From positions 1 through 46,135 of the forward strand of contig CAZPUH010000758.1 in assembly GCA_964589215.1 (NCBI GenBank): a stretch of 46,135 bases of DNA, in the 5' to 3' direction. Below, piece by piece: positions 3,333 to 42,052 of this stretch; within the stretch, counting starts at the first letter, position 1, and each line of letters opens with the position of its first letter. Made by a program: the position numbers and the translations under genes. Origin of the DNA: an uncultured Myxococcales bacterium. GTDB lineage: Bacteria > Myxococcota_A > Polyangia > Fen-1088. The notes beneath the pieces are model-generated. The model was not told where the DNA came from and made no database searches. It saw nothing but the letters and a program-made list of their open reading frames with translations.

Positions 3333-3635
3333 GTGCCGCGGGCCGTCCTCGTGCTCTTCCTGGCGCTGCTCACTTTCGAGGTGAGCGGTCTGGCGGCGAT
3401 TTGCGGCGATCCTACCTGCGACGAGGACTGCCCCTCCGACGCGTCCGGCGGACAGTGCGCGCCGAACTGCCATTTCTGTAGCTGCAGCCCGCTGCCGACC
3501 TTCACCAGGCCCGCGTCCTCGATTGCGGAGGTGAAGTCTTCCTTCGGGCGCACCAGCTGGTTCTGCGCGACCGAAACTCACCCCTCGCCCGACCCCGCGG
3601 CGATCCTGCACGTCCCCAAGCTGCTCCTCGCGTAG
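3333..3635 (+). CDS. Cys-rich secreted small protein leading the czc operon
   Basis: 100 aa with a GTG start and high GC3. Signal-like N-terminus AVLVLFLALLTFEVSGLAA, Cys cluster ICGDPTCDEDCPSDASGGQCAPNCHFCSCSP, C-terminal ILHVPKLLLA. Confidence 0.6.
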   Translation: MPRAVLVLFLALLTFEVSGLAAICGDPTCDEDCPSDASGGQCAPNCHFCSCSPLPTFTRPASSIAEVKSSFGRTSWFCATETHPSPDPAAILHVPKLLLA

Positions 3636-3708
3636 CGATCCGAACGAGTGAGTGGACGGGGTGCCGCCGGGTGGCGGTCCGTCCGTGACGTGGACACGCG
3701 AGGGAACC

Positions 3709-5016
3709 ATGAAACGCACGTTGATGGCGGCGACGCTCGTCGTTGCCGGTGCCTGGGCGCGCGAAGCCGTCGCCCAGGACCAACCGAAGCAAACGACTGG
3801 GTGCAGCGGCCCACTCGACGCGGACGGCGTCGTTCGTTGCGCGCTCGCCGCCAGCCCGGAGGTCCGGGCGGCGCGCGCCGAGTTCGACGCCGCGGGCGGC
3901 CGGAAAGCCACCGCGGGCGTCTGGCTACCCAGCAATCCGACCGTGGCCGCCCTCTTCTCGAACCGCCGCCGGCCGCCGCCGGAAGCCGCCTCCGTCTTCA
4001 ACTGGAGCGTGGTGCTCTCACAGGAAGTGGAGATCGCCGGCCAGCGGGGCGCCCGGGTGGAGGCAGCCGACGCCGAGGTCGCGGCACGGGCGCGCCGGGT
4101 CGGCGTCGCGGAGCAGGAGGTCGCCGCCGGAGCGCTCGCGGCCTACTACGAGGCGGTCGCGGCGCAGGAGACGCTCCGTTTCGCGGAGGAGCTGGCTCGC
4201 ATGGCTCAGTCCCTGGCGGCGTTTGCCGAAGGGCGGGCCAAGGAGGCGATGCTCGCCGGCATCGAGGCAGACGTCGCCCGCGCGGAGGCGACGCGTATCG
4301 GGCTGGCCCGGTTCGAGGCCGAGCGAAGGCTGACGGAGTCCCGTGCCGCGCTGGCGGCTCTGCTCGATGTCGACGCGCGCACGCTGAAGCTCCCCGGGGC
4401 GCTCGTCGTCCCGACGGCCGAGCTGCCCGCCGGCACCGGCTTGCCCGAAGAGCAGGCGCTCCGGCTGCGCGGCGAGGTCGCGGCGGCCGAATTGGAGAGG
4501 CAGGTCCTCGAGCGGCGTCTCGCCCTCGTTCGCCGAGAGCGTGTCCCCAACCTCACCCTCTCGGCGTTCGCCGAGCGGGGCGAGATCAACGATCGCATCC
4601 TGGGCGTCGGCCTCTCCGTGCCTTTGCCGCTGCCCGCGCCCGTCGGGCGCACGCGGGCCGGCGAGATCGCGGAGACCATGGCGCAGATTCGCGCCGCCGA
4701 GACCTCCGAGGAGCTGGTCCGCCGCCGCGTCCGACTTGAGGTGACCCGCGCCCTGGCCGCGTACACCGCACGTCAGGGTGCCGCGAGCCTCTTCGGGGCC
4801 GACCTCCTCACCCGTGCGCACGCCGATCTGACCGCGCTCCGCGATGCGATCTCATCGCGGCAGCTCTCGCTGCGGGAGGCGCTGCAGTGGCAGCGCAGCC
4901 TGATCGAGCTGCTCCAGGCCGACATCGAGGCGCGCCTCGGGCAGGTCCTGGCGCTGGTCGAGCTTCGCCGGGTGGTGGGGACACCGTTCGCGGCCGGCCA
5001 AGGAGGTGCGCGATGA
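3709..5016 (+). CDS. czcC: TolC-family outer membrane efflux protein (CzcC-like)
   Basis: Start chosen at the ATG preceded by GAGGGAA, giving signal peptide MKRTLMAATLVVAGAWAREAVAQ. The protein is a long Ala/Arg/Glu-rich two-repeat coiled region typical of OMFs. Its stop overlaps the next start (ATGA). Confidence 0.85.
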   Translation: MKRTLMAATLVVAGAWAREAVAQDQPKQTTGCSGPLDADGVVRCALAASPEVRAARAEFDAAGGRKATAGVWLPSNPTVAALFSNRRRPPPEAASVFNWSVVLSQEVEIAGQRGARVEAADAEVAARARRVGVAEQEVAAGALAAYYEAVAAQETLRFAEELARMAQSLAAFAEGRAKEAMLAGIEADVARAEATRIGLARFEAERRLTESRAALAALLDVDARTLKLPGALVVPTAELPAGTGLPEEQALRLRGEVAAAELERQVLERRLALVRRERVPNLTLSAFAERGEINDRILGVGLSVPLPLPAPVGRTRAGEIAETMAQIRAAETSEELVRRRVRLEVTRALAAYTARQGAASLFGADLLTRAHADLTALRDAISSRQLSLREALQWQRSLIELLQADIEARLGQVLALVELRRVVGTPFAAGQGGAR

Positions 5017-6245
5017 GGTGGCTGACCGCGGGCGCGGCGCTGCTGGTCACCGCCGCCGCGACCGCGTGCTCCCGGCAGCCCGCCGAGCTGGCGCACACCA
5101 CCGACCGCGCGTCGCGCGAACAGCAGCCAGAGCCTGGGCGAGGACAGGCAGGGCCCGCCCCTCACAAAGACGAATCGGAGGTGCACGAGGCGCTCCCCAG
5201 CAAGGTGCGGCTCCCGCCGAGCGTCGTGAAGGCGGCGGGCATCAAGACCGCGCCTGCCGTTCTCGACAGCCTGCCCGCGACCGTGGATCTGACCGGCGAG
5301 ATCGCCGCTGATCCCAACCGCTCCGCGCGCCTGGCCGCGCGCATCCCGGGCCGCATCATCGACGTCCGCGTGAAGGAAGGCGATCGGGTGAGCGCCGGCC
5401 AGACCGTCGCCATCCTCGAATCGTCGGAGCTGGCGCGGGCGCGCGCGACGCTCGCGTCGGCGGTGGCCCGCGCGCGCTCGACCCGGCTCAACGCCGACCG
5501 ACTCAAGAGCCTCGAAGCGAAGTCGCTGGCGTCCGGACAAGAGGTGTCCGCCGCGGAGGCCGAGGCGGCCGCGCTCGACTCCGAGGTCTCGGCCGCCAAG
5601 CAGACTCTGTCGGCGCTGGGGCAAGGCGAGGTGCAGACGAACAACGGCAGCGCCCGGGTGACCATCCGGACGCCGCTCGCGGGGTTCGTGCTCAGCCGCG
5701 ACGCCGTGCAGGGGCAGAGCGTCGACGCGGAGCACGTCATCGCGGTGGTCGGGGATCTCGATCGCGTCTACTTCCTGGGCCGCCTGTTCGAAAAGGATCT
5801 GGCGCGCGTGAAGGTCGGCGCGAGCTCCGAGGTCCGCCTCAACGCCTACCCGGCCGAGGCCTTCGAGGGAAAGATCGAGACAATCGGCCGGCAACTCGAC
5901 CCCGCCGCGCGCACCGTCACCGCCCGCATCGTCGTGCGCAACCATGCGGATCTGGTCAAGGTCGGCCTCTTCGGCACTGCCCGCGTCGTGGTTGGGCCGG
6001 CGGAGACGACGCTCAAGCGCGTCGTCGTCCCGTTCGCCGCGGTGACGCGCGTTGCGGACAAGGAGGTTGTCTTCGTCCTCCAGCCCGATGGCGACTTCGA
6101 GCTTCACCCGGTGACGCTCGGACGGACGGCCGGCGGCCGCGTCGAGATCTTGAGCGGCCTGCGGGCCGGCGAGAAGGTCGTCGCCGACGGCGTCTTCACG
6201 CTCAAGAGCGCGGTCCTGAAGGGCACGTTCGGCGAGGAGGAGTGA
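5013..6245 (+). CDS. czcB: RND efflux periplasmic adaptor (MFP, CzcB-like)
   Basis: Lipoprotein-like N-terminus LLVTAAATACS. HlyD-type lipoyl/barrel motifs (RIPGRIIDVRVKEGDRVSAGQTVAILES, VTIRTPLAGFVLSRD). Positioned between the OMF and RND genes. Confidence 0.85.
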   Translation: MRWLTAGAALLVTAAATACSRQPAELAHTTDRASREQQPEPGRGQAGPAPHKDESEVHEALPSKVRLPPSVVKAAGIKTAPAVLDSLPATVDLTGEIAADPNRSARLAARIPGRIIDVRVKEGDRVSAGQTVAILESSELARARATLASAVARARSTRLNADRLKSLEAKSLASGQEVSAAEAEAAALDSEVSAAKQTLSALGQGEVQTNNGSARVTIRTPLAGFVLSRDAVQGQSVDAEHVIAVVGDLDRVYFLGRLFEKDLARVKVGASSEVRLNAYPAEAFEGKIETIGRQLDPAARTVTARIVVRNHADLVKVGLFGTARVVVGPAETTLKRVVVPFAAVTRVADKEVVFVLQPDGDFELHPVTLGRTAGGRVEILSGLRAGEKVVADGVFTLKSAVLKGTFGEEE

Positions 6246-6246
6246 C

Positions 6247-9200
6247 GTGGTCTTCCTGAGCCGCATCGTCTCCTGGTCGCTCCGGCACCGCGCCGTCGTG
6301 CTGCTCGCGACGGGCCTCTTGGCCGTGGTCGGCGTCCGCTCCGCCTTCACCCTCCCGATCGACGCCGTCCCCGACATCACCAACATCCAGGTGCAGGTGA
6401 TCACCGCCGCTCCCGCCCTGACCCCCGTCGAGGTCGAGCAGTACGTGAGCGTGCCCGTCGAGCGCGCGATGGCCGGCATCCCCAAGGTCGAAGAAGTCAG
6501 GTCCATCTCGAAGTACGGCCTCTCGGTGGTGACGGTCGTCTTCGAGGACGGCACCGACATCTACTTCGCCCGCCAGATGGTGGCGGAGCGGATGCGCGAG
6601 GCCGACGACACCGTCCCCGCGGCCTACGGGCGCCCCGAGATGGGCCCGATCGCGACCGGCCTCGGCGAGGTCTACCAGTTCGTGGTGCGGGGCGAGGGGC
6701 GCTCGCTCATGGAGCTCGAGGAGACCCTGGATTGGTACATCGGCCCGCAGCTCCGCAGCGTGCCCGGGATCGTCGAGGTCAACAGCTTCGGCGGCGAGGA
6801 CAAGCAGTACCAGATCGTGATCGATCCCAAGCGCCTTCAGGCCGCCGGCCTCTCGCTCGGCGAGGTGATTCACGCCCTCGAGCGATCCAACGCCAACGCG
6901 GGCGGCGGATACATCGAGCACAACAGGGAGCAGGTGGTGATCGGGACGGTCGGGCTGGTGACCAGCCTGGGGGACCTCAACTCGGTCGTCGTCGGCGCGA
7001 CGTTACAGGGCGTCCCGATCACGGTGGCCAACATCGCCGAGGTCCGCTTTGGCCCGCGCCTGCGGCGCGGCGCCGCGTCGATGGACGGCAAGGGCGAGGT
7101 GGTCGTCGGCGTCGCGCTGATGCTGATGGGCGAGAACTCCCGCCTGGTGACCAACCGCGTGAAGGCGAGGCTGGAAGAGCTGCGCCCGACGCTCCCCGCC
7201 GGCATCCGGATCGAGCCCTTCTACGACCGGTCGGAGCTGGTGGCCCGGACGATCAAGACGGTCGTCCGGAACCTCGCCGAGGGCGCGGCTCTCGTGATCA
7301 TCATTCTCCTGGTCCTGCTGGGCGACATCCGCGCGGGGCTGATCGTCGCCTCCACGATCCCTCTCTCCATGCTGTTCGCCATCGCCCTGATGAAGGCGAC
7401 CGGCGCCTCCGGGAACCTGATGAGCCTGGGCGCGATCGACTTTGGTCTCATCGTCGACGGTGCAGTGATCATCGTAGAGAACGCCGTTCGCAGGCTGGGG
7501 GAGAAGCGGGTCGCGGCTGACCGCGAGCTCACCTCCGACGAGAGGGTGACGGTGGCTCACGATGCGGCGGTCGAGGTGCGGAGCGCCAGCGTTTTCGGCG
7601 AGATCATCATCGCGATCGTCTATCTGCCGATCCTCGCCCTGCGCGGCATCGAGGGGAAGCTGTTCCACCCGATGGCCAGGACGGTGCTGTTCGCGCTCGC
7701 CGGCGCGTTCATCCTCTCGCTGACCCTCGTCCCGGTCCTCGCAAGCTACCTCCTCAAAGGGCGCAGCGTGAGTCACGAACCCTGGCTGATGCGGCAGGCC
7801 CGCCGCGGCTACGTGCCCGTCCTTCGTCGGGCCCTCGCGCGTCCATCCATCACGCTCGGCGTGGGGCTCGTCGTGCTGGCGCTCGGCGGCGGTCTGATGA
7901 CCCGCCTCGGGGCGGAGTTCGTGCCCCAGCTCGACGAAGGGGACCTGCTGCTCGAGGCGCGGCGCCTGCCGGGCATTGCGCTCTCGGAGACCATCGCGAC
8001 CGACATGCGCGTCGAGCGAGCGGTGCTCCTGGTCCCCGAAGTCGAGCACGTGGTCGCGCGCGCCGGTGCCCCGGAGGTCGCCACCGATCCCATGGGCATC
8101 GAGCAGAGCGACATCTACGTGACCCTCAAGCCGCGGGACGAATGGCGGCCCGGGCTCACGAAGGAGGCACTGGGCAAGGAGGTGGCGGAGATCGTCGATC
8201 GGGAGGTGCCCGAGGTGGCGGTCGCGGTGTCGCAGCCGATCCAGATGCGCACCAATGAGCTCATCGCCGGCGTCCGATCTGACGCAGCCGCCCAGATCTA
8301 CGGCCCCGATCTCCAGACGCTGCAGCAACTGGCGCAGCAGGTGGTCGCGGCGCTGAAAGGTGTCGCCGGCGTTGCGGACCTGCGCGCCGAACAAGGCACC
8401 GGGCTCACCTACCTGCGCATTCGGCCGGACCGAGCGCGCCTGGCGCGCTACGGCCTCACCATCGAGGACGTCAACACGATCACGGAGACGATGGCCGTCG
8501 GGAGAACGGTCGGCGACATCTTCGAGAAGGACCGGCGCTTCGCGATGGTGGTGCGGACCGCCTTCGACTTCCAGGGGAACCTCGCAAGCGTGCGGGCGCT
8601 GCCGCTCAAGTCGACGCTGGGGCAGATCGTTCCCCTCGGCGACGTTGCGGACGTGGTGCTCGAGTCAGGCCCGGCGCTCGTCAACCGCGACAAGCAGTCG
8701 CGGCGCTCGATCGTCGAGTTCAACGTGCGCGGGCGCGACGTCGTGTCGACGGTCGAAGAAGCGAGACGGGTGGTCGCGTCCGCGGTGAGCCTCCCCGCCA
8801 ACTATCACGTGGACTGGGGCGGCCAGTTCCAGAACTACAGCGCCGCCCGCGCCCGCCTCGCGGTCGTGGTGCCGCTGGCGCTCGTCCTGATCGTGTTCCT
8901 GCTGTGGCTCGCGTTCGGCAAGGTGAAGCCCGCGATCCTGGTGTTCGCGAACGTCCCGTTCGCCGCCGTGGGCGGCGTCCTGGCTCTGTGGCTGCGCGAC
9001 ATCCCCTTCAGCATCTCGGCCGGCGTCGGGTTCATCGCCCTGTTCGGCGTGGCCGTCTTGAACGGTCTGGTCCTGGTCTCGTTCTGCTTGCACCTGGAGG
9101 AGGAAGGCACCCCACCCCGCCGGGCCATCGCCGAGGCGGCCGAGCTGCGGCTGCGGCCCGTCCTCATGACCGCTCTGGTGGCCGCGCTGGGCTTCGTCCC

Positions 9201-9384
9201 GATGGCCCTGTCTCGAGCGCCTGGGAGCGAGGTGCAGCGCCCGCTGGCGACGGTCGTCATCGGCGGCCTCATCACTGCGACGGCGCTCACGTTACTTCTG
9301 TTTCCGGCGGTCTACGCTCTCGCGCACCGCCAGCCACAAAAGAGAGATGCCAAGAACAGCACACCAGGGGAGGGACAGACATGA
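6247..9384 (+). CDS. czcA: heavy-metal efflux RND transporter, CzcA type (divalent cations)
   Basis: 1045 aa. The TM4 signature GAIDFGLIVDGAVIIVENAV (DFG-DGA-VEN) and EFVPQLDEGDLLLEARRLPGI are typical of CzcA-type HME pumps. Confidence 0.9.
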   Translation: MVFLSRIVSWSLRHRAVVLLATGLLAVVGVRSAFTLPIDAVPDITNIQVQVITAAPALTPVEVEQYVSVPVERAMAGIPKVEEVRSISKYGLSVVTVVFEDGTDIYFARQMVAERMREADDTVPAAYGRPEMGPIATGLGEVYQFVVRGEGRSLMELEETLDWYIGPQLRSVPGIVEVNSFGGEDKQYQIVIDPKRLQAAGLSLGEVIHALERSNANAGGGYIEHNREQVVIGTVGLVTSLGDLNSVVVGATLQGVPITVANIAEVRFGPRLRRGAASMDGKGEVVVGVALMLMGENSRLVTNRVKARLEELRPTLPAGIRIEPFYDRSELVARTIKTVVRNLAEGAALVIIILLVLLGDIRAGLIVASTIPLSMLFAIALMKATGASGNLMSLGAIDFGLIVDGAVIIVENAVRRLGEKRVAADRELTSDERVTVAHDAAVEVRSASVFGEIIIAIVYLPILALRGIEGKLFHPMARTVLFALAGAFILSLTLVPVLASYLLKGRSVSHEPWLMRQARRGYVPVLRRALARPSITLGVGLVVLALGGGLMTRLGAEFVPQLDEGDLLLEARRLPGIALSETIATDMRVERAVLLVPEVEHVVARAGAPEVATDPMGIEQSDIYVTLKPRDEWRPGLTKEALGKEVAEIVDREVPEVAVAVSQPIQMRTNELIAGVRSDAAAQIYGPDLQTLQQLAQQVVAALKGVAGVADLRAEQGTGLTYLRIRPDRARLARYGLTIEDVNTITETMAVGRTVGDIFEKDRRFAMVVRTAFDFQGNLASVRALPLKSTLGQIVPLGDVADVVLESGPALVNRDKQSRRSIVEFNVRGRDVVSTVEEARRVVASAVSLPANYHVDWGGQFQNYSAARARLAVVVPLALVLIVFLLWLAFGKVKPAILVFANVPFAAVGGVLALWLRDIPFSISAGVGFIALFGVAVLNGLVLVSFCLHLEEEGTPPRRAIAEAAELRLRPVLMTALVAALGFVPMALSRAPGSEVQRPLATVVIGGLITATALTLLLFPAVYALAHRQPQKRDAKNSTPGEGQT

Positions 9385-9908
9385 CACATCGATTTAGTCG
9401 AGGAACGGGGTCGCTTGCATCACAGTGGGTTCTCTTTGCGATCGTGATGGCAGTGTTCGCTTGCGCCAACCCGGCGCGAGCCGCCGAGCCGGGGGACGGA
9501 GTGAACGCCTGCGGATGCCGGAAGGATTCAGCCGGCCTCTGCTACTGCGATCGAAAGGCGAAGTGCGGCTGCCCCGGCGAGTGCGAGCCGAAGGGCTGCG
9601 ACGAGAAGCGAGCCAAGCAGCTCGAAAAGGAGATCGAGCTCGAGACCAAGAAGGCCGAAGCGGCCGGGCGCCAGGGGAAAACAGACGAAGCCGGCGAGGA
9701 TCGCGCTGCCCCCGCAGGCCGCAAGCAGGCGGCGGAAGTGACGCCGAAGAAACACCCTGCGCACCAGATGACCGTCGCCGAGCGACGCTCGCTCCGTGAC
9801 TTGTTGGATCTGTATGTTGCCGAGCACCCCGAGGCGAGCCAGAAGAGCATCGAGGAGGCGCGCGCCGCGCTGGGAGGCGCCGACGCGCGCGGGCCGGCTG
9901 ATCGCTGA
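9381..9908 (+). CDS. secreted CxC-rich protein translationally coupled to czcA
   Basis: Its ATG overlaps the czcA stop (ATGA). Signal-like WVLFAIVMAVFACANPARAA, then CGCRKDSAGLCYCDRKAKCGCPGECEPKGC (8 Cys in 30 residues), then a charged helical tail. Confidence 0.65.
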   Translation: MTHRFSRGTGSLASQWVLFAIVMAVFACANPARAAEPGDGVNACGCRKDSAGLCYCDRKAKCGCPGECEPKGCDEKRAKQLEKEIELETKKAEAAGRQGKTDEAGEDRAAPAGRKQAAEVTPKKHPAHQMTVAERRSLRDLLDLYVAEHPEASQKSIEEARAALGGADARGPADR

Positions 9909-9933: not shown

Positions 9934-10866
9934 ATGGGAGCACACACGCACGACGGAGAGCACGGGCATGCCGGCGACGGAACCTCCGGGACGCGGAGGC
10001 GTCTCGTCGCGGCCCTCGCTCTCACGGCGTCGTTCCTAGTGGTCGAGGTCGTGGCCGGTTTCATCTCGGGCAGCCTGGCCTTGCTGTCCGATGCCGGCCA
10101 CATGCTCACCGATGCCGGCGCCCTCGGGCTCGCCATCTGGGCGCAGGCGCTGAGCATCCGGCCGCGCTCCAGCCGCAAGACCTTCGGCTACCGTCGCGCG
10201 GAGATCTTGGCCGCCGCGGCGAACGGCATCGTCCTCGGGGCGACCGCCATCGCCGTGATCGTCGAGGCAGTCCGACGATTCACGTCGCCGCCGCCCGTCC
10301 AGGGAGTTCCGATGCTCATCGTTGCGGCCATCGGGCTCGCGATCAACATCCTCGCCGCGTGGATCCTCTCCCGCGGCGGGGCGCACAACCTCAACATGCG
10401 AGCGGCAGCTGCCCACGTCGTTGCGGACGCAGCGGGCTCCGTCGCCGCGCTGGTTGCTGCGGTGCTGATCCTGACGCTGGGCTGGACCATCGCCGACCCC
10501 ATCACGTCGATCCTGATCTCGGTGCTGATCCTGTTCGGCGCCTGGCGCCTCCTGAACGACGCGATACACGTCCTCATGGAAGGAACGCCGGCGGGGATCG
10601 ATGTCGGCGCTCTCGAGCGGATCGCGCGCGAGACGCCCGGCGTTCGAGACGTCCACGATCTGCATGTCTCGTCCATCGGCGGAGATTCGCCGATCATCAC
10701 GGCTCACGTCGTTCTGGCGCCGGGCGCGCACGGCGTCGAGGTCGCCCGCGACGTCGGACGCCGCATCGAGGACAAGGTCGGGGCCGCCCACATCACCGTG
10801 CAGCCCGAGGCCGCGCGGCCGGAAGACGACCTCCTTGCACCCCACACGCTCGTTCGGGGCCCCTGA
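9934..10866 (+). CDS. czcD: cation diffusion facilitator (CzcD/ZitB-like)
   Basis: His-rich N-terminus MGAHTHDGEHGHAGDG. CDF signatures SGSLALLSDAGHMLTDAG, FGYRRAEILAA and HVVADAAGSV. C-terminal cytoplasmic domain HDLHVSSIGG. Confidence 0.9.
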   Translation: MGAHTHDGEHGHAGDGTSGTRRRLVAALALTASFLVVEVVAGFISGSLALLSDAGHMLTDAGALGLAIWAQALSIRPRSSRKTFGYRRAEILAAAANGIVLGATAIAVIVEAVRRFTSPPPVQGVPMLIVAAIGLAINILAAWILSRGGAHNLNMRAAAAHVVADAAGSVAALVAAVLILTLGWTIADPITSILISVLILFGAWRLLNDAIHVLMEGTPAGIDVGALERIARETPGVRDVHDLHVSSIGGDSPIITAHVVLAPGAHGVEVARDVGRRIEDKVGAAHITVQPEAARPEDDLLAPHTLVRGP

Positions 10867-29379: not shown

Positions 29380-30420
29380 GTGCGCCAGCCGCGCCGCATC
29401 GCAGGGGGCCTGATGGCAGTCGCCGCCGTGGCCGTTTCGGCGTGCGGCTCGAAGCCGCCACGCGCGCCATCGGAGCCTCTGCCAACACGATCCGTGCGGA
29501 CCGAACGCGCCCGCCTGGACGCGAGCTCTTCGGGCGAAGCGGCCATCGGCACAGTCCGGGCGCGCAACTCGGCGGCCATATCTGCGACGGTGGTTGGCAA
29601 GGTCCGCGAGCTGAACGTGACACTCGGCCGCCGCGTGCGGGCGGGCGACGTTCTGGTTCGAATCTCGGCGGACGAAATCGGCGCCAAGCTGGACCAGACG
29701 GAGGCGATGTATGCGCGCGCCAAGCTCGAGTTCGAACGAGCCAAAGGCCTGCTCGAGCGCGAGGCGATCCCGCGGGTGCAGTACGACGCCGCGGCGGCCG
29801 ACTTCCGGGTCGCCACGGCTAGGCGGGCCGAGGCCGGGGCGATGGCCGACCATACGGTGCTCCGCGCGCCGTTCGCTGGCGTCGTCAGCGCCAAGCTCGC
29901 CAACGTCGGGGATACGGCCATGCCCGGCCAGACGCTCGTCGTTCTCGAGGATCCGCGCGCGCTGCGGCTCGAGGCCACGGTGCCTGAGATCGCCGCGCAG
30001 GCGATGCGGACGGGGCAGACGGTGTCGGTCCTCATCGATGGGGCCCAGCGCCCGGTGACCGGCACCGTGGCAGAGATCAGCCCGGCGGCGGACCCGATGA
30101 GCCGCACGGTGCTGGTGAAGATCGAGCTACCGGCCGACCCGTCGATCCACCCCGGCTTACTCGGCCGGTTGCTGCTGCCCGCATCTCCTGGTCAGGCACG
30201 CTCGGTCGTGGTCCCCAGCGGAACTGTCGTGCGCCGCGGCCAGCTCGACGAGGTCTTCGTTGTCGACCGGGGACGGGCCCGCTTGCGGTTGGTCAAAACT
30301 GGACGTGTCAAAGGGGACGGCGCGACGGAGATCCTGTCCGGCCTCACCGAAGGCGAGACGGTGGTCATCTCCGACCTCGCGGAATTGGTGGACGGGCAAG
30401 CTGTGGAGGCGCGCCTGTGA
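29380..30420 (+). CDS. RND efflux periplasmic adaptor (MFP) lipoprotein
   Basis: Lipobox AVAVSACG. Lipoyl/barrel motifs ([37 protein letters not shown]). GTGA overlap with the RND gene. Confidence 0.85.
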
Positions 30421-33400
30421 GTCGCGAGCCGCATCGCCAGGGCATCGCGGGCCGGATCGCGCGCGCGTTCATCGATTCGAAGCTGACGCCGCTCTTCATC
30501 GTCACCTCCGTCCTCCTGGGTCTGGTGGCCGTTCTTGCACTTCCGCGCGAGGAGGAACCGCAGATCAAGGTTCCCATGGTCGACGTGTCACTTTCCATGC
30601 CCGGCGCGACTGCCGAGGAGGTCGAGAGCCGTGTCTCCGCTCCCGTCGAGCGGTTGCTCTGGGAGATTCCAGGTGTCGAGTATGTCTACAGCACGAGCCA
30701 GCCGGGCCGTTCCCTGACGATCGTCCGGTTCAAGGTCGGCGAGGACGTGGAGAGGTCGCTGGTGAAGCTCCACCAGAAGCTCGACGCCAACGCCGATCGC
30801 ATTCCGCCGGGCGTGTCGCCCCCGCTCATCAAGGCGCGCTCCATCGACGACGTGCCGATCCTCGCGCTCACCTTCCACTCGCGCAATTACGACCACCTGG
30901 CCCTGCGCCGCATCGCCGCCCAGGTCGACGCCGAGATCAAACGGGTCCCCGAGGTGTCGGAGGCGACCCTCATCGGCGGCCTGCGGCGTCAGGTCCGCGC
31001 TCGGCTCGATCCCGCGGCGCTCGCGGCCCGGTCGCTGGCAGCGACCAACGTCACCCGCGTGCTGGCGCAGGCGAACAGTCAGGCCTCGGTCGGATCCCTC
31101 ACGCTCGCGGACCAGGACGTTCTGGTGCAGACGGGCGCCTTCTTCACAAGCGCCGAGGATGTCGGGACGGCCGTCGTCGGCGTCTACCAGGGCGCCCCCG
31201 TCCATCTCCGCGATGTCGCCAAGATCGCCGACGAAGCCGAGGAACCGAGCCAGTACGTGTTCTTTGGCAAAGGCGCGGCGACTTCGGGTACCGCCGACGA
31301 GGAGCCCGCCGTCACTCTGTCGATCGCCAAGCGCCCAGGAACCAACGCGATCAAGGTGGCGGACGCTGTCCTCGAACGGCTCGATCGCATGCGGCCAACC
31401 GCGCTCCCGGGTGATGTGTCGATCTCCATCACCCGTCACTACGGCGCGACCGCCGCGGAGAAGTCGAACGAGCTTCTTCTGCACATGGGGATCGCCGTGG
31501 TCAGCGTCTCCCTGCTCATCCTGTTCATGCTCGGGTGGCGCGAGTCCCTGGTGGTCGCCATCGCCATCCCGGCGACCCTCGCGCTGACGCTGCTCGTTTT
31601 CTACCTCGGCGGCTACACGCTCAACCGGATCACGCTGTTCGCCTTGATCTTCTCGATCGGCATCCTGGTGGACGACGCGATCGTCGTCGTCGAGAACGTC
31701 GTTCGGCACCGCGATCTGCCAGAGAACCGAGGACGTTCACTCAAGGAGGTCGCCGTCCATGCCGTCGCCGAGGTCGGCAACCCGACGATATTGGCCACGC
31801 TCGCGGTGATGGCCGCCGTCTTACCAATGGCGTTCGTGGGCGGACTGATGGGGCCGTACATGCGCCCGATTCCGATTGGCTCGTCCGCCGCGATGGCGTT
31901 CTCGCTGATGGTCGCGTTCGTGGTGACTCCCTGGGCGGCGGCGCGCCTGCTGAAGCGCTCGCGCGCAACTGGCGACGGTGGCCGCGGCGGTCATCGGACC
32001 GGGCGAGAAGACTTCGGTACCCGCGCATACCGCCGGGTGATGGCGCGTCTGGTGGGGCGTGCGTGGTGGCGCTGGGGCTTCCTCGGCCTCATTGCGGCCC
32101 TTCTGGTGGCTGCGATCTCCCTCGTTCCGGTGGGCGCCGCCCGCGTGAAGATGCTCCCCTACGACAACAAGAGCGAGTTTCAGGTGATCCTGAACATGCC
32201 CGAGGGGAGCTCGCTCGAGCGCACGGCCGCCGCCGCGCGAGACATCGCGGATGCGATCCGCGGCGAGCGTGAGGTCACCGACTATCAGACTTACGTCGGC
32301 ATCGCCTCGCCGTTCAACTTCAACGGCCTGGTCCGCCATTACTATCTGCGCCAAGGGCCCAGCGTCGCCGACATTCAGGTGAACCTCCTGCCGAAGGGCG
32401 ACCGGGACGCCCAGAGCCACGACATCGCCAAGCGCATCCGACCGGCCGTCGCGGCGATCGCGGCCCGCTACGGCGCGCGGGTGGCGGTGGCCGAGGTGCC
32501 ACCGGGGCCGCCCGTGCTGCAGACCCTGGTCGCGGAGGTCTACGCCCCGGACGCCCCTTCTCGGCAGCGGCTTGCACGCGCGATGCGCGACATCTTCCAG
32601 AAGACGCCAGGAGTGGTCGACGTCGACTGGTACGTCGAGGATCCGCACCCCAAGCAGCGGCTGGTCGTCGACAAGGAGAAGGCCGCCCTGCACGGCATCG
32701 GGGCGGACACCATCGCGGCTACCCTGGAGATCGCTGTGGGCGGCCGCCCGGCGGGCCTGCTTCACGTCCCGCGCGAACAAGAGGACGTCGAGATCATGCT
32801 CGACGTCCCCCGCACCCTGCGCACGTCGGTGGCGGACCTGCTCGCTCTTCGCGTGCCGGACGCCAGCGGCCACACGCTGGTGCCGCTGGGCGAGCTCGTC
32901 CGCGTCGAACAGACGACGGAAGACCAGAGCATCTATCACAAGAACCTGCTACCGGTCGTCTATGTGACCGCCGACGTCGCGGGTGGCGCGGAGAGCTCCG
33001 CCTACTCCGTACTCGCCATGAACCGGGCCGTGGCGGCGCTGGATGCCCAGGACTTCGGAGGCGCGAGCGGCAAGCTCGGCGTCTACAATTCCGAGCAACC
33101 GAAGAGCGACCTCGCTCCGGCGATCAAGTGGGACGGCGAGTGGCACATCACGCTCGAGGTGTTCCGTGACCTCGGCGCCGCCTTCGCCGTGGTGCTGGTG
33201 CTCATCTACGTGCTGCTCGTGGGCTGGTTCCGGTCGTTTGCCACGCCGCTCGTCGTGATGGCGGCCATCCCGTTCTCGCTCGTGGGGATCCTGCCGGCAC
33301 ACGCGGCGATGGGCGCCTTCTTCACGGCGACCTCCATGATTGGATTCATGGCCGGGGCCGGGATTGTCGTTCGCAATTCGATCATCCTCGTCGATTTCAT

Positions 33401-33746
33401 CGAGGCCCGCCTCGGTGAAGGTATGCCGCTCGACGCGGCGGTCGTCGATGCCGGCGCTGTCCGCTTCCGCCCGATGCTGCTGACCGCTCTGGCGGTCGTC
33501 GCCGGCGCCTCGGTCATACTGTTCGACCCGATCTTCCAGGGTCTGGCCCTCTCGCTCATGGCTGGCGAACTCGCGTCGCTCTTCATCAGCCGCATGGCCG
33601 TACCCGTTCTCTACTCGATGCTGGCACGACGAAGAACGGCGCAGAGCACCGCGCCAGTCGTCGCGAAGCTCGCCCTGACTGGCCTCCCTGCGGAGCTAGG
33701 GCCTGCACACGGGCCCCGACCTCTATCCGAGGGCGGCGTCTCGTAG
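30417..33746 (+). CDS. RND transporter permease, AcrB-like (HAE-type TM4 motif)
   Basis: 1109 aa. TM4 reads [20 protein letters not shown], the AcrB-like [10 protein letters not shown] form rather than the DFG-DGA-VEN or CusA forms. It has 12-TM architecture with two large loops. Confidence 0.85.
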
Positions 33747-37502: not shown

Positions 37503-38903
37503 ATGACGACCATGACAAAGACGAACAGCAACTCTTTCTCGGACTTGCTCACCTGGGGCCGGGGCCACCGGGCAGGTGCGGCCTTGCTGGTCGGGCTGCT
37601 CACTGCCGCGGGGATTCTGATAGGGATCGTCGGGACGCGCGTCTTCTTCGCCACGGCGACGCACACGGCCGCGAGCGTGACGACGGAGAAGCCGGCATCC
37701 TCTGCCTTGGCCACCCCAGAGACGGAGGCCTCGCCCAAGGCCGTCGTGCGGGTTCGCATCACGCCCGAGCGCCAGCAGCTCATCGGGGTTCGAACGGCGG
37801 TGGTCGGCACGGTGGCGCCGGAGAGCACGATCCGCACCGTCGGCGTGCTCGCGTATGACGAGAGGAGGGTGGCCGAGATCCACGCCAAAGTGGCGGGCTG
37901 GGTCGAGAAGGTCAACGTCGACTATGTCGGCAAGGCGGTCCGTAAGAACGAGCCTCTGCTGTCGATCTACAGCCCGGACCTGGTTGCCGCCCAGCTTGAC
38001 TACCTGGTCGCGATCAAGACCGGCGCCAAGTCAGCTGACTCGGCATCTTCCCTGCACCGTCTCGATCACTCGCTCGTCGATGCCAGCCGCACACGTCTCA
38101 AGCTGCTCGATATGACGGACGCCCAGATTGCGACGCTCGAGCGCACGCAGCAAGCCGCGAAGACGGTCACGCTGTACTCGCCCTTTTCGGGCGTGGTCGT
38201 CGAGCGCAAGGCATTCGCGGGCCAGTACATCCCGCCCGACATGGCCACCGTCAAGATCGCCGACCTCTCGACAATCTGGGCTATCGGCCAGGTCTACGAG
38301 TACGAGCTCGGCAAGGTTCGTGTCGGCCAGGACGCAGATGTCCAGTTTCCGTACGGCGAGACCAAGCCCGTCAAAGGGCGCGTGAGCTTCGTCTACCCGG
38401 ATATCGATCCCCACACGCGCACGGCCCGGGTGCGGGTGGAGTTCCGTAACCCTGGCGTCAAGTTCAAGCCCGAGTCGTTCGTGACGATCGTCCTTCATAC
38501 GGCCGGCACGTCACAGCTAGCCGTCCCGCGAGAGGCCGTCATCGATACGGGGGCGCGGCAGTACGTGTTGATGTCGCTGCCTGACGGGTTCTTCGAGCCC
38601 CGCGACGTCAACGTCGGGGAAACCCAGGGGGACGTCATCCCGGTGTTCACCGGCCTGCGCGTGGGCGAGCGCGTCGTCACCTCAGCCCAATTCTTGATCG
38701 ACTCCGAGACCAACCTGCAAGCGGCGATGCAGTCGATGTCCGCGACGATGCCGGGGATGAAGATGGAGGGCCAAGGCGCCGGCGACATGAAGGGGATGGA
38801 CACGAAAGGGGGCGGTCACGAGAAGGCCGGCGGCGGTGCGCAGGAAGACATGAAGGGGATGGACATGCCCTCGCAGCCGCCACCGGCATCGGAGCGGCGA
38901 TGA
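37503..38903 (+). CDS. cusB: RND periplasmic adaptor (CusB-like) with a Met/Gly-rich C-terminal tail
   Basis: HlyD-type motifs (IHAKVAGWVEKVNVDYVGKAVRKNEPLLSIYSPDL, VTLYSPFSGVVVER). The tail is MQSMSATMPGMKMEGQGAGDMKGMDTKGGGHEKAGGGAQEDMKGMDMP. ATGA overlap with cusA. Confidence 0.85.
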   Translation: MTTMTKTNSNSFSDLLTWGRGHRAGAALLVGLLTAAGILIGIVGTRVFFATATHTAASVTTEKPASSALATPETEASPKAVVRVRITPERQQLIGVRTAVVGTVAPESTIRTVGVLAYDERRVAEIHAKVAGWVEKVNVDYVGKAVRKNEPLLSIYSPDLVAAQLDYLVAIKTGAKSADSASSLHRLDHSLVDASRTRLKLLDMTDAQIATLERTQQAAKTVTLYSPFSGVVVERKAFAGQYIPPDMATVKIADLSTIWAIGQVYEYELGKVRVGQDADVQFPYGETKPVKGRVSFVYPDIDPHTRTARVRVEFRNPGVKFKPESFVTIVLHTAGTSQLAVPREAVIDTGARQYVLMSLPDGFFEPRDVNVGETQGDVIPVFTGLRVGERVVTSAQFLIDSETNLQAAMQSMSATMPGMKMEGQGAGDMKGMDTKGGGHEKAGGGAQEDMKGMDMPSQPPPASERR

Positions 38904-41900
38904 TCAAGAAGCTGATCGCGTTCTCGGCGCGCAACCCGTTCGTGGTCGTCCTGATGATGGTGATCATCCTGGGCGCCGGCGTGTGGGCCATCCGGCACAC
39001 GCCCATCGACGCGATCCCCGATCTTTCGGATGTCCAGGTCATCGTAACGACGAACTGGGAGGGCCGCAGCCCGACTCTCGTTGAGGACCAGGTCACTTAC
39101 CCGATCGTCACCGCGCTCCTCTCGGCGCCGCGCGTGAAGGTGGTCCGTGGCTTCTCGTACTTCGACATCTCTTTCGTCTACGTCATCTTCGAGGACGGCA
39201 CCGATCAGTACTGGGCGCGATCGCGGGTGCTCGAGTACCTGAATGGCCTCCAGGGCAGGCTCCCTCCGAACGCGCAACCGGTGCTCGGCCCGGACGCGAC
39301 CGGGGTTGGCTGGGGCTTCGAGTACGCCCTCGTGGACAAGACCGGGAAGCACGACCTCGCGGAGCTTCGGACGCTCAACGATTGGTACGTGCGCTACTGG
39401 CTGCGGTCCATCACCGGGGTCGCCGACGTGGCACCGGTGGGTGGCTTCGTGAAGCAGTACCAGATCGAGGTCGATCCCAACGCGCTCCTCGCCTTCAACG
39501 TCCCGATCGACCGAGTGGTCGCCTCGGTCCGCAAGAGCAACAACGACGTGGGCGGGCGCGTCGTCGAATGGACCGGTCACGAGTACATGGTGCGTGGCGA
39601 GGGCTATCTGAAGAGCGTCGCCGACATAGAGCAGATTGGGCTCGGGGCCAAGCCCGACGGAACGCCCATCTTGGTGAGGAATGTGGCCCGCGTCCACCTC
39701 GGTCCGGAGATGCGCCGGGGCGTCTCAGAGCTGAATGGCGACGGGGACGCCGCCGGCGGGATCGTCGTCATCCGCTCCGGCGTCGACACCTATGGCGTCC
39801 TTGCGGCGATCAAGAAGGCGATCGCCGACAAGATCCAGCCGTCACTGCCAGAGGGAGTGAAGCTGGTCACGACCTACGACCGGTCCGAGCTCATCGAACG
39901 ATCGATCGAGACGCTGAAGTCCAAGCTGATCGAGGAGATGGCGATCGTGTCGCTCGTCTGCGTCGTCTTCCTGTGGCACTTCCGGAGCGCCCTCGTGGCG
40001 ATCCTGACTTTGCCGCTCTCGATCCTGCTCGCGTTCGTGGCGATGCGGTTCGTGGGGCTCGGCTCGAACATCATGAGCCTGGGCGGAATCGCGATCGCCA
40101 TAGGAGCCATGATCGACGCCGCGATCATCATGATCGAGAACGCCCACAAACACATCGAACACGAGCAGGCGGCCGATGGGAAGTCCCGGCGAGAAATTCT
40201 GATCGAGGCGGCGCAAGAGGTCGGGCGCCCACTCTTCTTCTCATTGTTGATCATCACGGTGTCCTTCCTCCCGATATTCACGCTCGAAGCGCAGGAAGGG
40301 CGCCTCTTTCGGCCGCTGGCGTTCACCAAGACCTTCTCCATGGGCTTCGCCGCGCTGACGTCGGTCCTCATCGTCCCGTTTCTGATGGTCCTTTTCATCC
40401 GCGGCCGCATCACGCGCGAGGACAGAAACCCCATCAACCGACTGCTCATCTGGGCCTATCACCCATTCGTGAAGCTCGTTCTGCGGCATCGGGCGCTGAC
40501 GCTCCTGGCAGCCGCGCTGCTCCTCGCTAGCACCGGGCCGATCATCATGAAGCTCGGCTCCGAATTCATGCCGCCACTCTACGAGGGGACGCTCCTCTAC
40601 ATGCCGCTGACCCTGCCGGGCGCGTCGGTACAGACGGCGCAGCAGATCCTTGCGCTGCAAGACAAGCTCATCGGAGAGGTTCCCGAGGTGCAGTCGGTGT
40701 TCGGCAAGGCGGGCCGCGCCGAGACGGCCACGGACCCCGCGCCTCTCGAGATGATCGAGACGGTCATCAACCTCAAGCCCGAGACGGCTTGGCGCCCTGG
40801 GATGACGCCCGACAAGGTAATCGCCGAGCTCGACAAGCGCGTTCGCGTGCCCGGGGTGGCGAACGCCTGGACGATGCCGATCAAGGCGCGGGTCGACATG
40901 CTATCTACCGGGATCAGAACACCCGTCGGCATCAAGATCTTCGGCCCGACGTTGGAGAAGATCAACGACATCGGAGCGCAGATTGAAGGAGCGCTCGGGG
41001 CGGTGCGCGGTACGCGGAACGTCTTCTCGGAGCGTGTCACGGGCGGCTACTACGTCGACTTCAAGGTCAAGCGCGACCAGATAGCGCGATACGGCCTTAC
41101 GGTCGAGGACGTCGAGATGGTGATCGAGTCGGCGATCGGGGGCGCGAACGTCACGACCACGATCGAGGGACGGGAGCGCTACCCGGTCAACGTCCGTTAT
41201 CAACGGACTTACCGCACCGACGTCGGTGCGCTCAAGCGGACGCTCATCGCAGCGGGTGACGGAACGCAGATCCCGCTGGAGCAGGTCGCCGACATCAGCG
41301 TGAGCACGGGCCCGACCGTCATCCGGACAGAGCAGGCGCAACTGCTCGGCTACGTCTACGTCGACGTCGCCGACCGAGACATCGGGGGCTACGTGACGGA
41401 TGCCAAGGAGGTCGTCGCGCGGATGGTGAAGCTTCCGCCGGGCTACACGCTCGAGTGGAGCGGCCAGTACGAGTACATGCAGCGCGCGAAGGAGCGCCTC
41501 AAGGTCGTCATCCCGATCACGCTTCTGGCGGTCATCGTCCTCCTCTACTTCAACACCCGCAACGTGACCAAGATCTGCATCGTCCTCCTCGCGGTGCCGT
41601 TCTCGCTAGTGGGCGCGTTCTGGGTCGTTTACCTGCTCGGCTACAACCTCTCCGTTGCGGTCTGGGTCGGGTTCATCGCGCTCGCCGGGGTCGACGCGGA
41701 GACGGGGGTGGTGATGCTGCTCTACCTCGACGCCGCTTACGACAGGGCGAAGGCGGAAGGGCGAATGAACACCCTGAGTGACCTCCAGCTCGCCGTGGAG
41801 GACGGTGCGGTCAAGCGGATCCGGCCGAAGATGATGACGGTGATGGCGATCTTGATGGGTCTCCTCCCGATCATGTGGAGCCGTGGCGCGGGCGCAGACG

Positions 41901-42052
41901 TCATGAAGCGGATCGCGGCGCCCATGGTGGGGGGGGTCGTGACCTCCTTCATCCTGGAGCTGCTCATCTACCCGGTGATCTTCACGATCTGGAAGAAGCG
42001 CGAGGTGCTCGCGCGGCGCGACACGCCTCGGCTTCTGGGAGAAGATCGATGA
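38900..42052 (+). CDS. cusA: Cu(I)/Ag(I) efflux RND transporter, CusA type
   Basis: 1050 aa. The TM4 motif GGIAIAIGAMIDAAIIMIENAH is CusA-type. The methionine-triad contexts LLYMPLT, PLEMIETVINLKP and RVDMLSTGIRTPVGIKI parallel E. coli CusA M573/M623/M672. Confidence 0.9.
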   Translation: MIKKLIAFSARNPFVVVLMMVIILGAGVWAIRHTPIDAIPDLSDVQVIVTTNWEGRSPTLVEDQVTYPIVTALLSAPRVKVVRGFSYFDISFVYVIFEDGTDQYWARSRVLEYLNGLQGRLPPNAQPVLGPDATGVGWGFEYALVDKTGKHDLAELRTLNDWYVRYWLRSITGVADVAPVGGFVKQYQIEVDPNALLAFNVPIDRVVASVRKSNNDVGGRVVEWTGHEYMVRGEGYLKSVADIEQIGLGAKPDGTPILVRNVARVHLGPEMRRGVSELNGDGDAAGGIVVIRSGVDTYGVLAAIKKAIADKIQPSLPEGVKLVTTYDRSELIERSIETLKSKLIEEMAIVSLVCVVFLWHFRSALVAILTLPLSILLAFVAMRFVGLGSNIMSLGGIAIAIGAMIDAAIIMIENAHKHIEHEQAADGKSRREILIEAAQEVGRPLFFSLLIITVSFLPIFTLEAQEGRLFRPLAFTKTFSMGFAALTSVLIVPFLMVLFIRGRITREDRNPINRLLIWAYHPFVKLVLRHRALTLLAAALLLASTGPIIMKLGSEFMPPLYEGTLLYMPLTLPGASVQTAQQILALQDKLIGEVPEVQSVFGKAGRAETATDPAPLEMIETVINLKPETAWRPGMTPDKVIAELDKRVRVPGVANAWTMPIKARVDMLSTGIRTPVGIKIFGPTLEKINDIGAQIEGALGAVRGTRNVFSERVTGGYYVDFKVKRDQIARYGLTVEDVEMVIESAIGGANVTTTIEGRERYPVNVRYQRTYRTDVGALKRTLIAAGDGTQIPLEQVADISVSTGPTVIRTEQAQLLGYVYVDVADRDIGGYVTDAKEVVARMVKLPPGYTLEWSGQYEYMQRAKERLKVVIPITLLAVIVLLYFNTRNVTKICIVLLAVPFSLVGAFWVVYLLGYNLSVAVWVGFIALAGVDAETGVVMLLYLDAAYDRAKAEGRMNTLSDLQLAVEDGAVKRIRPKMMTVMAILMGLLPIMWSRGAGADVMKRIAAPMVGGVVTSFILELLIYPVIFTIWKKREVLARRDTPRLLGEDR

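Follow-up and report, generated by a model that had tools for sequence, protein, structure and literature searches.

What is a small, cysteine-rich and apparently exported protein doing in an operon for a divalent-metal efflux pump? The question is raised by gene X (P0001), which encodes 175 aa in the czc operon (ORF 9381..9908, +) of the window, i.e., the whole stretch of 46,135 nucleotides of uncultured Myxococcales DNA analysed here. A first-pass annotation had interpreted the product as metallothionein-like, coupled to czcA and possibly a buffer or delivery factor, an interpretation that our analysis supports in part. The question bears on how Czc-type RND pumps are supplied with substrate and on whether Zn, Cd or Co exported by CDF or P-type pumps is handed over in the periplasm; the only dedicated carrier in the periplasm that we know of is CusF, which serves Cu/Ag.

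Gene X and its operon

The operon reads, in order, a Cys-rich miniprotein, czcC, czcB, czcA, X and a czcD-like CDF gene. Its first gene (P0251, 100 aa; 3333..3635, +) encodes a second Cys-rich miniprotein with a signal peptide, for which neither Pfam nor NCBIfam gave a match. It is followed by genes for a CzcC-like outer-membrane factor (ORF coordinates 3652..5016, +; Pfam OEP, E=1.4e-18) and a CzcB-like membrane-fusion protein (ORF coordinates 4887..6245, +; Pfam HlyD_D23, E=2.4e-39); czcC probably starts at a later ATG than its ORF, and the true start of czcB is probably close to the czcC stop codon. The RND gene (6247..9384, +) encodes a CzcA-like HME-RND pump of the divalent-cation type (Pfam ACR_tran, 920 bits; NCBIfam TIGR00914 for CusA/CzcA, 1197 bits at a cut-off of 701) and carries DFGLIVDGAVIIVEN in TM4, a DFG-x3-DGA-x3-VEN motif, which we take to denote divalent-cation pumps according to the published HME-RND classification. 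The gene 25 nt after X (9934..10866, +) encodes a CzcD/ZitB-like CDF exporter (Pfam Cation_efflux and ZT_dimer; TIGR01297, 273 bits at a cut-off of 82), whose best-scoring NCBIfam model is ZitB, yet with a score below the ZitB equivalog cut-off. The exporter has HxxxD in TM2 and TM5 (GHMLTD and AHVVAD) and a His-rich N-terminus, HTHDGEHGH, and no terminator-like site was found between X and the CDF gene. This gene, directly downstream of X, had been overlooked in the first-pass annotation.

As previously described, the start codon of X (ATG, 9381) and the stop codon of the RND gene (TGA) overlap as a 4-nt ATGA (caGACATGAca), and this coupling to czcA is found again in four other operons (L001, L060, L081, and L099), whose X proteins show 47-72% identity. 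A Shine-Dalgarno-like GGAGG (9369..9373, +) lies within the 3' end of czcA, 7 nt before the ATG, and GGGGAG-type sites were found at the equivalent position in L001 and L060. With the ATGA overlap as evidence, we could conclude that X is translationally coupled to czcA. The dN/dS of X against six orthologues was 0.18-0.33, which marks it as a genuine gene on which purifying selection acts.

Export signal and domain layout

The N-terminus of X carries a predicted Sec signal peptide (residues 1-34; 9381..9482, +) with an n/h/c layout, in which R4 and R7 precede a 14-residue uncharged hydrophobic core, WVLFAIVMAVFACA, followed by ARA, the predicted cleavage site, and AE. Judged heuristically, the region shows the positive n-region, the 7-15-residue h-region and the small residues at -3/-1 that SPase I calls for, as well as an N-in/C-out charge bias; a twin-arginine motif is not present in it. 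The same heuristic layout test, applied family-wide to 233 full-length homologues, revealed an 11-residue window of strong hydrophobicity ahead of the Cys motif in 96%, a positive n-region in most and an AxA-like site in all of them. AF2 modelled the signal segment as a helix (residues 11-28). From its sequence, the product of X thus looks exported by a Sec-type signal, and the signal-like segment proposed earlier is borne out both in X and across the family. A lipobox-like VFAC occurs in X and is not conserved in L060.

The architecture of the family is a signal peptide, an 8-Cys domain, a Lys/Glu-rich helix, a disordered tether and a three-helix domain. In X, the 8-Cys domain (residues 42-73; 9504..9599, +) follows the pattern N-x-CGC-x7-CYC-x5-CGCPGECEPKGC, with invariant alignment columns, and in the conserved Lys/Glu-rich helix (residues 74-99; 9600..9677, +) the residues E88, T89 and A92 vary little or not at all. 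The linker (residues 100-131; 9678..9773, +) is variable and of low complexity (pLDDT <50; 19-32% identity), and its length differs by tens of residues between homologues. The conserved C-terminal domain (residues 132-167; 9774..9881, +) carries an LLDLYxAEHP motif, with L138, L141, Y145 and P150 invariant or nearly so, and was modelled by AF2 as three helices at a pLDDT of ~90. The Lys/Glu-rich helical tail of the first-pass annotation was therefore correct as to the helix, but the disordered linker and the conserved three-helix domain beyond it had been missed. Mean pLDDT was 65-67, both for the full protein and for the Cys domain with the helix. Within the Cys domain, AF2 placed a beta-hairpin (46-48/54-56; pLDDT 55-75) with CGC and CYC on opposite strands, in models that do not discriminate disulfides from metal sites.

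Conservation of the cysteines

Residues 44-73 (nt 9510-9599) read CGCRKDSAGLCYCDRKAKCGCPGECEPKGC, in agreement with the CxC-rich stretch as first quoted. They contain three CxC motifs and a total of 8 Cys (27% of the 30 residues), whereas the ~140-residue mature X is only ~6% Cys. The spacing of the Cys, C-x-C-x7-C-x-C-x5-C-x-C-x3-C-x4-C, is shared without change by 180 of 234 homologues. The 30-sequence and 64-sequence alignments have an invariant Cys in all eight columns; with 118 sequences, seven of these columns stay invariant and the eighth, C73, is conserved at 90% or more; the first-pass annotation had let its interpretation stand or fall with this conservation, which was found in all three alignments. 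The residues between the Cys (N, G, P, G, E, P, G) are likewise invariant or nearly so, and the mature protein of 213 of the 234 homologues has exactly 8 Cys, an even number. In the variant P0246 the first four Cys are replaced but the last four are retained together, which suggests two independent 4-Cys units.

The CxC spacing of X resembles that of metallothionein domains, and X may bind metal through thiolates and handle it in the periplasm. The reading we favour, tentatively and with somewhat less than even confidence, is that X reaches the periplasm via Sec and there acts as an accessory protein of a mobile Zn/Cd/Co efflux operon, its thiols binding metal in order to buffer it, pass it on or report it. 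However, the near-invariant inter-Cys residues, unlike the variable ones of metallothioneins, count against metal binding, as do the fixed number of 8 Cys and the AF2 placement of CGC and CYC on two hairpin strands, as in cystine-ladder peptides.

The same three features are in favour of four structural disulfides, which would make X a small knotted protein of the periplasm, an adaptor or a signalling ligand with no metal binding of its own, an explanation that we consider a serious possibility, albeit a somewhat doubtful one. The first four Cys could then pair as a CxC...CxC ladder hairpin and the last four form a second unit, consistent with the retention of the last four in P0246; Gly, Pro and Asn are among the invariant or nearly invariant residues between the Cys. 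Export of X by a Sec-type route, as judged by the heuristic, also fits, and the source genome encodes VKOR and 6-8 DsbA-family genes, so that exported Cys are likely oxidised. Given the even Cys count, the near-invariant inter-Cys residues and the VKOR and DsbA-family genes, a disulfide-knotted domain is about as likely as a thiolate cluster. On the other hand, two 4-Cys units would equally fit two Zn(Cys)4 sites, the AF2 confidence for the Cys domain is moderate, known disulfide-rich folds gave no match, and the even-Cys bias among the exported proteins of the genome, selected by a crude signal-peptide filter, is weak (0.52 vs 0.50).

The two invariant CGC motifs could alternatively be redox-active CXC centres, with X acting in periplasmic thiol-disulfide exchange or as a thiol buffer, shielding or repairing envelope thiols that Cd, Zn or Cu have damaged. 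CXC peptides mimic the active site of protein disulfide isomerase, and the same island carries a thioredoxin/DUF302/OsmC thiol-stress unit and a ZAS-fused sigma factor. Nevertheless, X has no thioredoxin fold and matches no oxidoreductase family, its eight invariant Cys exceed the needs of a catalytic pair, and no reductant partner of the DsbD/CcdA type was seen beside X at any locus, and we regard a redox function as improbable.

Size and range of the X family

More than 230 homologues of X were found; a search at E<=0.01 gave 215, and clustering at 50% identity gave 131 representatives. Each genome has 1-4 copies, and among the genomes sampled only Polyangia-labelled MAGs of a single uncultured family carry them. 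X had no match in Pfam (E<=0.01) or NCBIfam (E<=10), and when 30 members were searched against Pfam at E<=10, no metallothionein family was among the matches. Sub-threshold matches to DUF3500 and ScsC_N in the Lys/Glu-rich helix and C-terminal region of 30 homologues were taken as compositional. Nor did the Pfam models of CusF, CopG (DUF411) and Csp (DUF326) match X or the 30 members, and no sequence or fold match of X to CopG or Csp was found in the PDB; that no metallothionein, CusF, CopG or Csp model matches X was counted against metal binding. A profile search of PDB sequences with the family gave weak helical matches only, Foldseek of the AF2 models against the PDB returned nothing at E<1, and the larger homologues (214-447 aa) contained no informative domains. 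Literature searches yielded nothing for the motif strings of X, and nothing on point for periplasmic metallothioneins or Cys-rich periplasmic proteins in combination with czcA or Myxococcus. The earlier remark that no such czc component is known thus agrees with Pfam, NCBIfam, the PDB and the searchable literature, and we conclude that X belongs to a new, unannotated and lineage-restricted protein family with two conserved domains.

Genomic context of X and its homologues

Neighbouring genes were taken from GC3-filtered gene calls and targeted tblastn, with spurious high-GC ORFs excluded; some of the assemblies contain likely frameshifts. Approximately 90% of the family members are not near czc or other metal genes, and the largest group lies upstream of genes for a Ser/Thr kinase, a lipoprotein and an ECF sigma factor. 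Two genes of 535-538 aa downstream of X homologues in L059 and L061 were considered as a conserved partner and rejected, being unrelated to each other. The order RND-X-CDF was found at six of ~150 loci examined, namely the window, L001, L060, L081, L099, and the P0037 locus, and X homologues do not, therefore, always follow czcA, a point that the first-pass annotation had left to be checked. In favour of the metal reading, every CzcA at least 76% identical and with readable downstream DNA carries X between czcA and the CDF gene; CzcA homologues of other lineages (63-67% identical) are without X. CDF orthologues ~70% identical stand alone without X in two genomes of the same genus, an observation that counts against the metal reading.

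In the family tree, one clade of X (SH-aLRT 85) has the CDF gene as a neighbour in 8 of 10 rows, compared to 2 of 134 outside it. The arrangement varies: a P0251-like gene, X and CDF follow one another with no RND gene between in L065, X is convergent with a CDF-CDF-RND operon in L064, divergent from CDF in L031, and convergent with CDF in L127. CDF, and not CzcA, is thus the constant neighbour of the metal-linked clade, and this clade has stayed linked to CDF and RND metal exporters while the gene order was rearranged several times. By tblastn, homologues of P0251 head czcC in L001 and L060 and immediately precede X in L064 and L065; they occur in none of the further loci examined, i.e., P0251-like genes co-occur only with the CDF-linked clade. 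An H-x-x-H-x-M sequence before the C-terminal domain was rejected as specific to this clade, since the His two residues before the Met is also found in the kinase clade.

The predominance of non-metal, envelope-related contexts fits the disulfide explanation, under which the czc clade would modulate or scaffold CDF and RND proteins and the kinase clade would act on a membrane Ser/Thr kinase or ECF sigma pathway; what this explanation leaves unaccounted for is the adjacency of one clade to CDF and RND genes through at least four rearrangements. A further explanation, that X is a housekeeping envelope paralogue caught by chance in a mobile czc island with no functional tie to the pump, draws on the mostly chromosomal, metal-unrelated location of the family, on the integrase or excisionase genes of the islands with czc-linked copies, and on the minority of loci with RND/CDF linkage. 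We find it quite unlikely, as the CDF linkage survives four gene orders or orientations at an X identity of only 47-72%, the 4-nt start/stop overlap is conserved, the czc-linked copies are under purifying selection, and P0251-like genes are restricted to the CDF-linked clade.

Comparison with known systems

Like X, the CusF protein of E. coli CusCFBA, a Cu(I)/Ag(I) chaperone in the periplasm, is a small exported protein of an HME-RND operon, and it takes periplasmic metal, including that from an inner-membrane exporter, to the RND pump, a likeness that for X is hypothetical. The two have no relation in sequence or fold: CusF is an OB-fold protein that has a Met/His/Trp site and lacks a Cys cluster, whereas the AF2 model of X is a hairpin with helices rather than a beta-barrel. 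Moreover, X comes after the RND gene, beside a CDF gene, and in a Czc operon for divalent cations rather than a Cus operon. The 30-residue stretch of X, with its 8 Cys, its cluster of CxC motifs, much Lys and Gly and few aromatics, resembles bacterial metallothioneins (SmtA/BmtA, Pseudomonas, MymT), of which those known are, to our knowledge, cytosolic. In contrast, X has a signal peptide, near-invariant inter-Cys residues, and a Cys domain that makes up ~1/5 of a 140-residue mature protein with a helix, a tether and a helical domain.

Precedents for periplasmic Cys-based metal sites are CopG, which is genetically linked to copA and cusCBA, and the Tat-exported Csp1 (PMC7558416). CopG is a periplasmic protein with a CxCC tetranuclear Cu cluster in a thioredoxin-like fold, and Csp1 is a Cys-lined Cu store in a four-helix bundle; both folds are unrelated to that of X, which has a Sec-type signal instead of the Tat signal of Csp1. 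Both proteins bind copper, whereas the context of X is Zn/Cd/Co, and neither matches X in sequence. CzcI and CzcE of the Cupriavidus czc cluster are small exported proteins with proposed regulatory or metal-binding roles, and we know of no 8-Cys cluster in either. They differ from X in gene position, X being located between czcA and czcD, and X matches no Pfam or NCBIfam family.

Possible role of X

In the metal reading, the eight thiols would bind a soft divalent metal in the periplasm (Zn or Cd, possibly Co or Cu), and the tethered C-terminal domain would dock X to a partner. By this combination of metal binding and docking, X would buffer the metal released by the CDF exporter, hand it over where CzcCBA takes in metal from the periplasm, or report its presence. 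Since X is kept beside CDF and in czcCBA-czcD operons through rearrangements, and is apparently exported with eight invariant Cys, it offers a concrete candidate, easy to express, for a periplasmic carrier of Zn/Cd/Co. A bolder version holds that X is the first periplasmic, metallothionein-like thiolate-cluster carrier of Zn/Cd from CDF to CzcCBA and that its paralogues are metal- or redox-sensitive inputs to Ser/Thr-kinase and ECF-sigma signalling; this we think unlikely, and if true it would be the Zn/Cd counterpart of the CopA-CusF-CusCBA relay.

The same Cys module might serve paralogues elsewhere, such as those upstream of the Ser/Thr kinase, lipoprotein and ECF sigma factor genes, in different processes of the envelope. 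Even if the Cys form disulfides, X represents a new family that is apparently specific to one uncultured myxobacterial lineage, and its synteny classes (metal efflux; kinase and ECF sigma) make the function testable. The Cys domain differs little from clade to clade, with 73% identity when the czc clade is compared to the kinase clade, which, together with the location of most of the family away from metal genes, counts against the metal reading and indicates that the Cys module is not specialised for Czc.

The gene and its operon

The gene under study, here called X, lies at 9381-9908 on the forward strand, starts with ATG and encodes a 175-aa product. A GGAGG is located 7 nt upstream of the ATG, and the last two bases of the start codon plus the A after them make up the TGA at which the upstream gene stops. 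The first-pass annotation, which had described this ATGA overlap, a signal-like N-terminus, a cysteine stretch at nt 9510-9599 and a Lys/Glu-rich part, was accurate wherever it could be checked: the N-terminus reads MTHRFSRGTGSLASQWVLFAIVMAVFACANPARA followed by AEPGDGVNA, then come the cysteine stretch CGCRKDSAGLCYCDRKAKCGCPGECEPKGC (residues 44-73), a Lys/Glu-rich segment, an Ala/Pro/charged stretch and the C-terminal part MTVAERRSLRDLLDLYVAEHPEASQKSIEEARAAL.

Directly upstream of X is a czcA-type gene (6247-9384, 1045 aa) encoding an HME-RND pump (Pfam ACR_tran, 920 bits; NCBIfam TIGR00914, CusA/CzcA, 1197 bits against a cut-off of 701), which carries DFGLIVDGAVIIVEN, the TM4 motif in the form that the published HME-RND classification assigns to divalent-cation pumps, and which is preceded by an OEP gene and a CzcB-like MFP gene (Pfam). 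A CDF gene (9934-10866) with a His-rich N-terminus, HxxxD in both TM2 and TM5 and ZitB as its best NCBIfam model begins 25 nt downstream of X, and a search for a terminator-like site between the two revealed none. Judged from this layout, X would be synthesized in step with CzcA. The operon sits on an island that has an integrase at 250-1410; excisionase-type genes are also borne by two loci of relatives, L060 and L066.

An undescribed family with eight conserved cysteines

The proposed homology search returned abundant relatives, 215 at E<=0.01 in a 90%-clustered collection and, in a set of 1.84 billion proteins, 131 representative clusters at 50% identity, yet none in Pfam, NCBIfam or PDB. 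X itself had no match in Pfam and NCBIfam, no Pfam domain was found in named or unnamed homologues, 30 homologues scanned against Pfam gave sub-threshold matches only, a profile run against all PDB sequences yielded insignificant helical matches only, and Foldseek of the X models found no match in PDB. Where named at source, homologues are called 'hypothetical protein'. All come from uncultured organisms, hence experimental literature on the family is absent, and the motif strings of X did not occur in searchable literature. By these comparisons, X is a genuine gene, conserved, and its family is undescribed.

Non-conservation of the cysteines would have spoken against the first-pass reading, but none of the eight varies when 30 or 64 sequences are aligned; with 118, seven stay invariant and the conservation of C73 is at least 90%. 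The spacing C-x-C-x7-C-x-C-x5-C-x-C-x3-C-x4-C is the same in 180 of 234 members, the remainder being off by one or two residues, and the mature protein has exactly eight cysteines in 213 of the 234. N42, G45, P65, G66, E69, P70, G72, E88, T89, A92, L138, L141, Y145 and P150 are likewise invariant or nearly so, and dN/dS of X against six orthologues is 0.18-0.33. Two natural homologues are short of a single cysteine, and in the homologue P0246 the first four are replaced by CNKCH, a CxxCH motif resembling a haem c attachment site, while the CECPGECEPVGC half is retained. From this sequence the two four-cysteine halves seem to be separable units, compatible with two disulfide pairs each or with two Zn(Cys)4 sites.

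Export was judged by a sequence heuristic in 233 full-length members, which extended the signal-like segment noted for X to a family-wide signal-peptide layout: 96% have a strongly hydrophobic 11-residue window upstream of the cysteine motif, all have a small-x-small site, and the n-region is net positive in most. The uncharged stretch (median 19 residues in the family, 14 in X) is on the short side for an anchor in the membrane. A twin-arginine motif is absent from X, whose extra cysteine, C28, belongs to a poor lipobox (VFAC) inside the h-region and is lacking in the L060 homologue. AF2 models reached moderate confidence (mean pLDDT 65-67 with the 118- and 64-sequence inputs) and predict, from N to C, a signal helix and a beta-hairpin whose strands (46-48/54-56) carry CGC on one side and CYC on the other; a long helix follows (73-99), then a linker modelled as disordered (100-131) and, confidently (pLDDT ~90), a three-helix C-terminal domain. 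X is a strongly conserved, two-domain protein of putative exported type.

X accompanies CDF genes in one clade

The expectation that homologues always follow czcA failed for the family as a whole and held within one clade, more strongly there than had been anticipated. Among 58 species-representative loci, the order RND-X-CDF occurs only in L001 and a divergent CDF gene only in L031; about 14 have X upstream of a Ser/Thr kinase, and the others are spread over several further synteny classes, whose neighbours we named from sequence and not by family scan (Lon protease, TonB-dependent receptor-like, OmpA-like and secreted Cys-repeat proteins). Of 80 loci from JGI metagenomes, about 24 show the kinase link and one a convergent CDF gene. 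The kinase arrangement is the commonest class, with about 39 of 153 distinct loci.

RND-X-CDF loci comprise the window, L001 (X identity 72%), L060 (69%), L081 (49%), L099 (47%) and the locus of P0037 (47%), and the 4-nt start/stop overlap recurs in all but the last of these. L065 has X and CDF coupled by overlapping stop and start with no RND gene between, L064 has X convergent with a CDF-CDF-RND-MFP operon, in L031 X is divergent from CDF, and in L127 it is convergent with a CDF gene 72% identical to that of the window. Across these ten loci the immediate neighbour is always CDF, and an RND gene is adjacent in six. Of the 144 family members placed in a tree, one clade (SH-aLRT 85) has 10, of which 8 are CDF-adjacent, versus 2 of the 134 outside it, and the label clusters far more than when shuffled; that X is a hitch-hiking paralogue, carried along by its neighbours, appears improbable. 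X and CDF accompany all CzcA homologues of 76% identity or more whose downstream DNA is readable, but not those 63-67% identical (three in other families, one in another genus of the same family). The gene for X has stayed beside CDF genes of the Zn type and within RND operons of the Czc type. The CDF does not depend on X, since orthologues 69-71% identical stand alone, with no X or RND gene nearby, in two same-genus genomes (G321:C4:186573-187487, L188; G303:C14:22655-23581, L189).

The two clade members without an adjacent CDF gene are L002 and L066. In L066 (1-12513) the member P0013, 54% identical, lies behind a pair of P-type ATPase genes, an OprB porin and an unknown gene of 331 aa, on an element with HTH_17, ThiF/E1-like, Y4jH-like and Peptidase_M78 genes, which makes it another mobile, cation-transport context.

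The operon is headed by P0251 (3333-3635, forward strand), a second Cys-rich signal-peptide protein, of 100 aa and without family match in Pfam/NCBIfam, whose homologues occur only in loci of the CDF-linked clade. Its counterpart heads the operon in L001 (1943-2233) and L060, and immediately precedes X, without czcCBA between them, in L064 (1247-1582) and L065 (2876-3250). X and P0251 may form a pair, and an ancestral module of miniprotein, X and CDF may have been opened by insertion of czcCBA between miniprotein and X.

Possible functions

Tentatively, our first choice is that X is a metal-handling periplasmic accessory protein, whose eight cysteines would bind metal. The linkage to divalent-metal exporters outlasts gene rearrangement, the CxC spacing is metallothionein-like, and exported Cys-metal proteins are already known, namely CopG, linked to copA and cusCBA, and Csp1, which is Tat-exported (PMC7558416). 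However, the cysteine domain is nearly the same in clades unrelated to metals (73% identity between czc and kinase clades, against 40% for the C-terminal domain), the cysteine number is even, the residues between them are invariant or nearly so, and the modelled hairpin sets two CxC motifs across from each other, as in a cystine ladder. A disulfide-knot adaptor or ligand that binds no metal is nearly as likely as metal handling. Periplasmic disulfide formation is available: a single VKOR homologue (C103:5125-5511) and six to eight ORFs of the DsbA family are encoded in the genome, but no DsbB, which suggests a VKOR-based pathway. An even-cysteine test on exported proteins, a crude one, was only weakly positive. 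A redox-active CXC protein we consider unlikely.

Returning to metal handling, X resembles CusF in position and proposed role but matched none of the CusF, metallothionein, CopG and Csp families. It is best described as a new family in a known niche, the periplasmic accessory of a metal-efflux operon. What is new is its constant pairing with CDF and not with the RND pump, suggesting Zn/Cd hand-over from the inner-membrane exporter to the periplasmic entry of the pump; we know of no Zn/Cd carrier between the two.

Distribution

The family is present in 25/25 genomes of the genus (1-3 copies each) and in 9/11 other genera of the same family (1-4 copies), and was found in 0/25 genomes of the class's other families and 0/300 further genomes of the phylum; the hosts are listed in public records as Polyangia or Myxococcales MAGs, and the family may be usable as a lineage marker. 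The window's own genome has two copies in total, so that no X homologue follows the two further RND-sized ORFs of the island, called by size (30417-33746, 1109 aa, and 38900-42052, 1050 aa, both forward). Downstream of the second copy (C770:3836-4270, reverse strand, from the own-genome search), a Ser/Thr kinase comes within about 50-70 nt, succeeded by genes for a lipoprotein-like product and an ECF sigma factor (region to about 250). The lipoprotein-like product has 363 aa, and the kinase is a membrane Ser/Thr kinase with counterparts 68-98% identical in about 15 other genomes.
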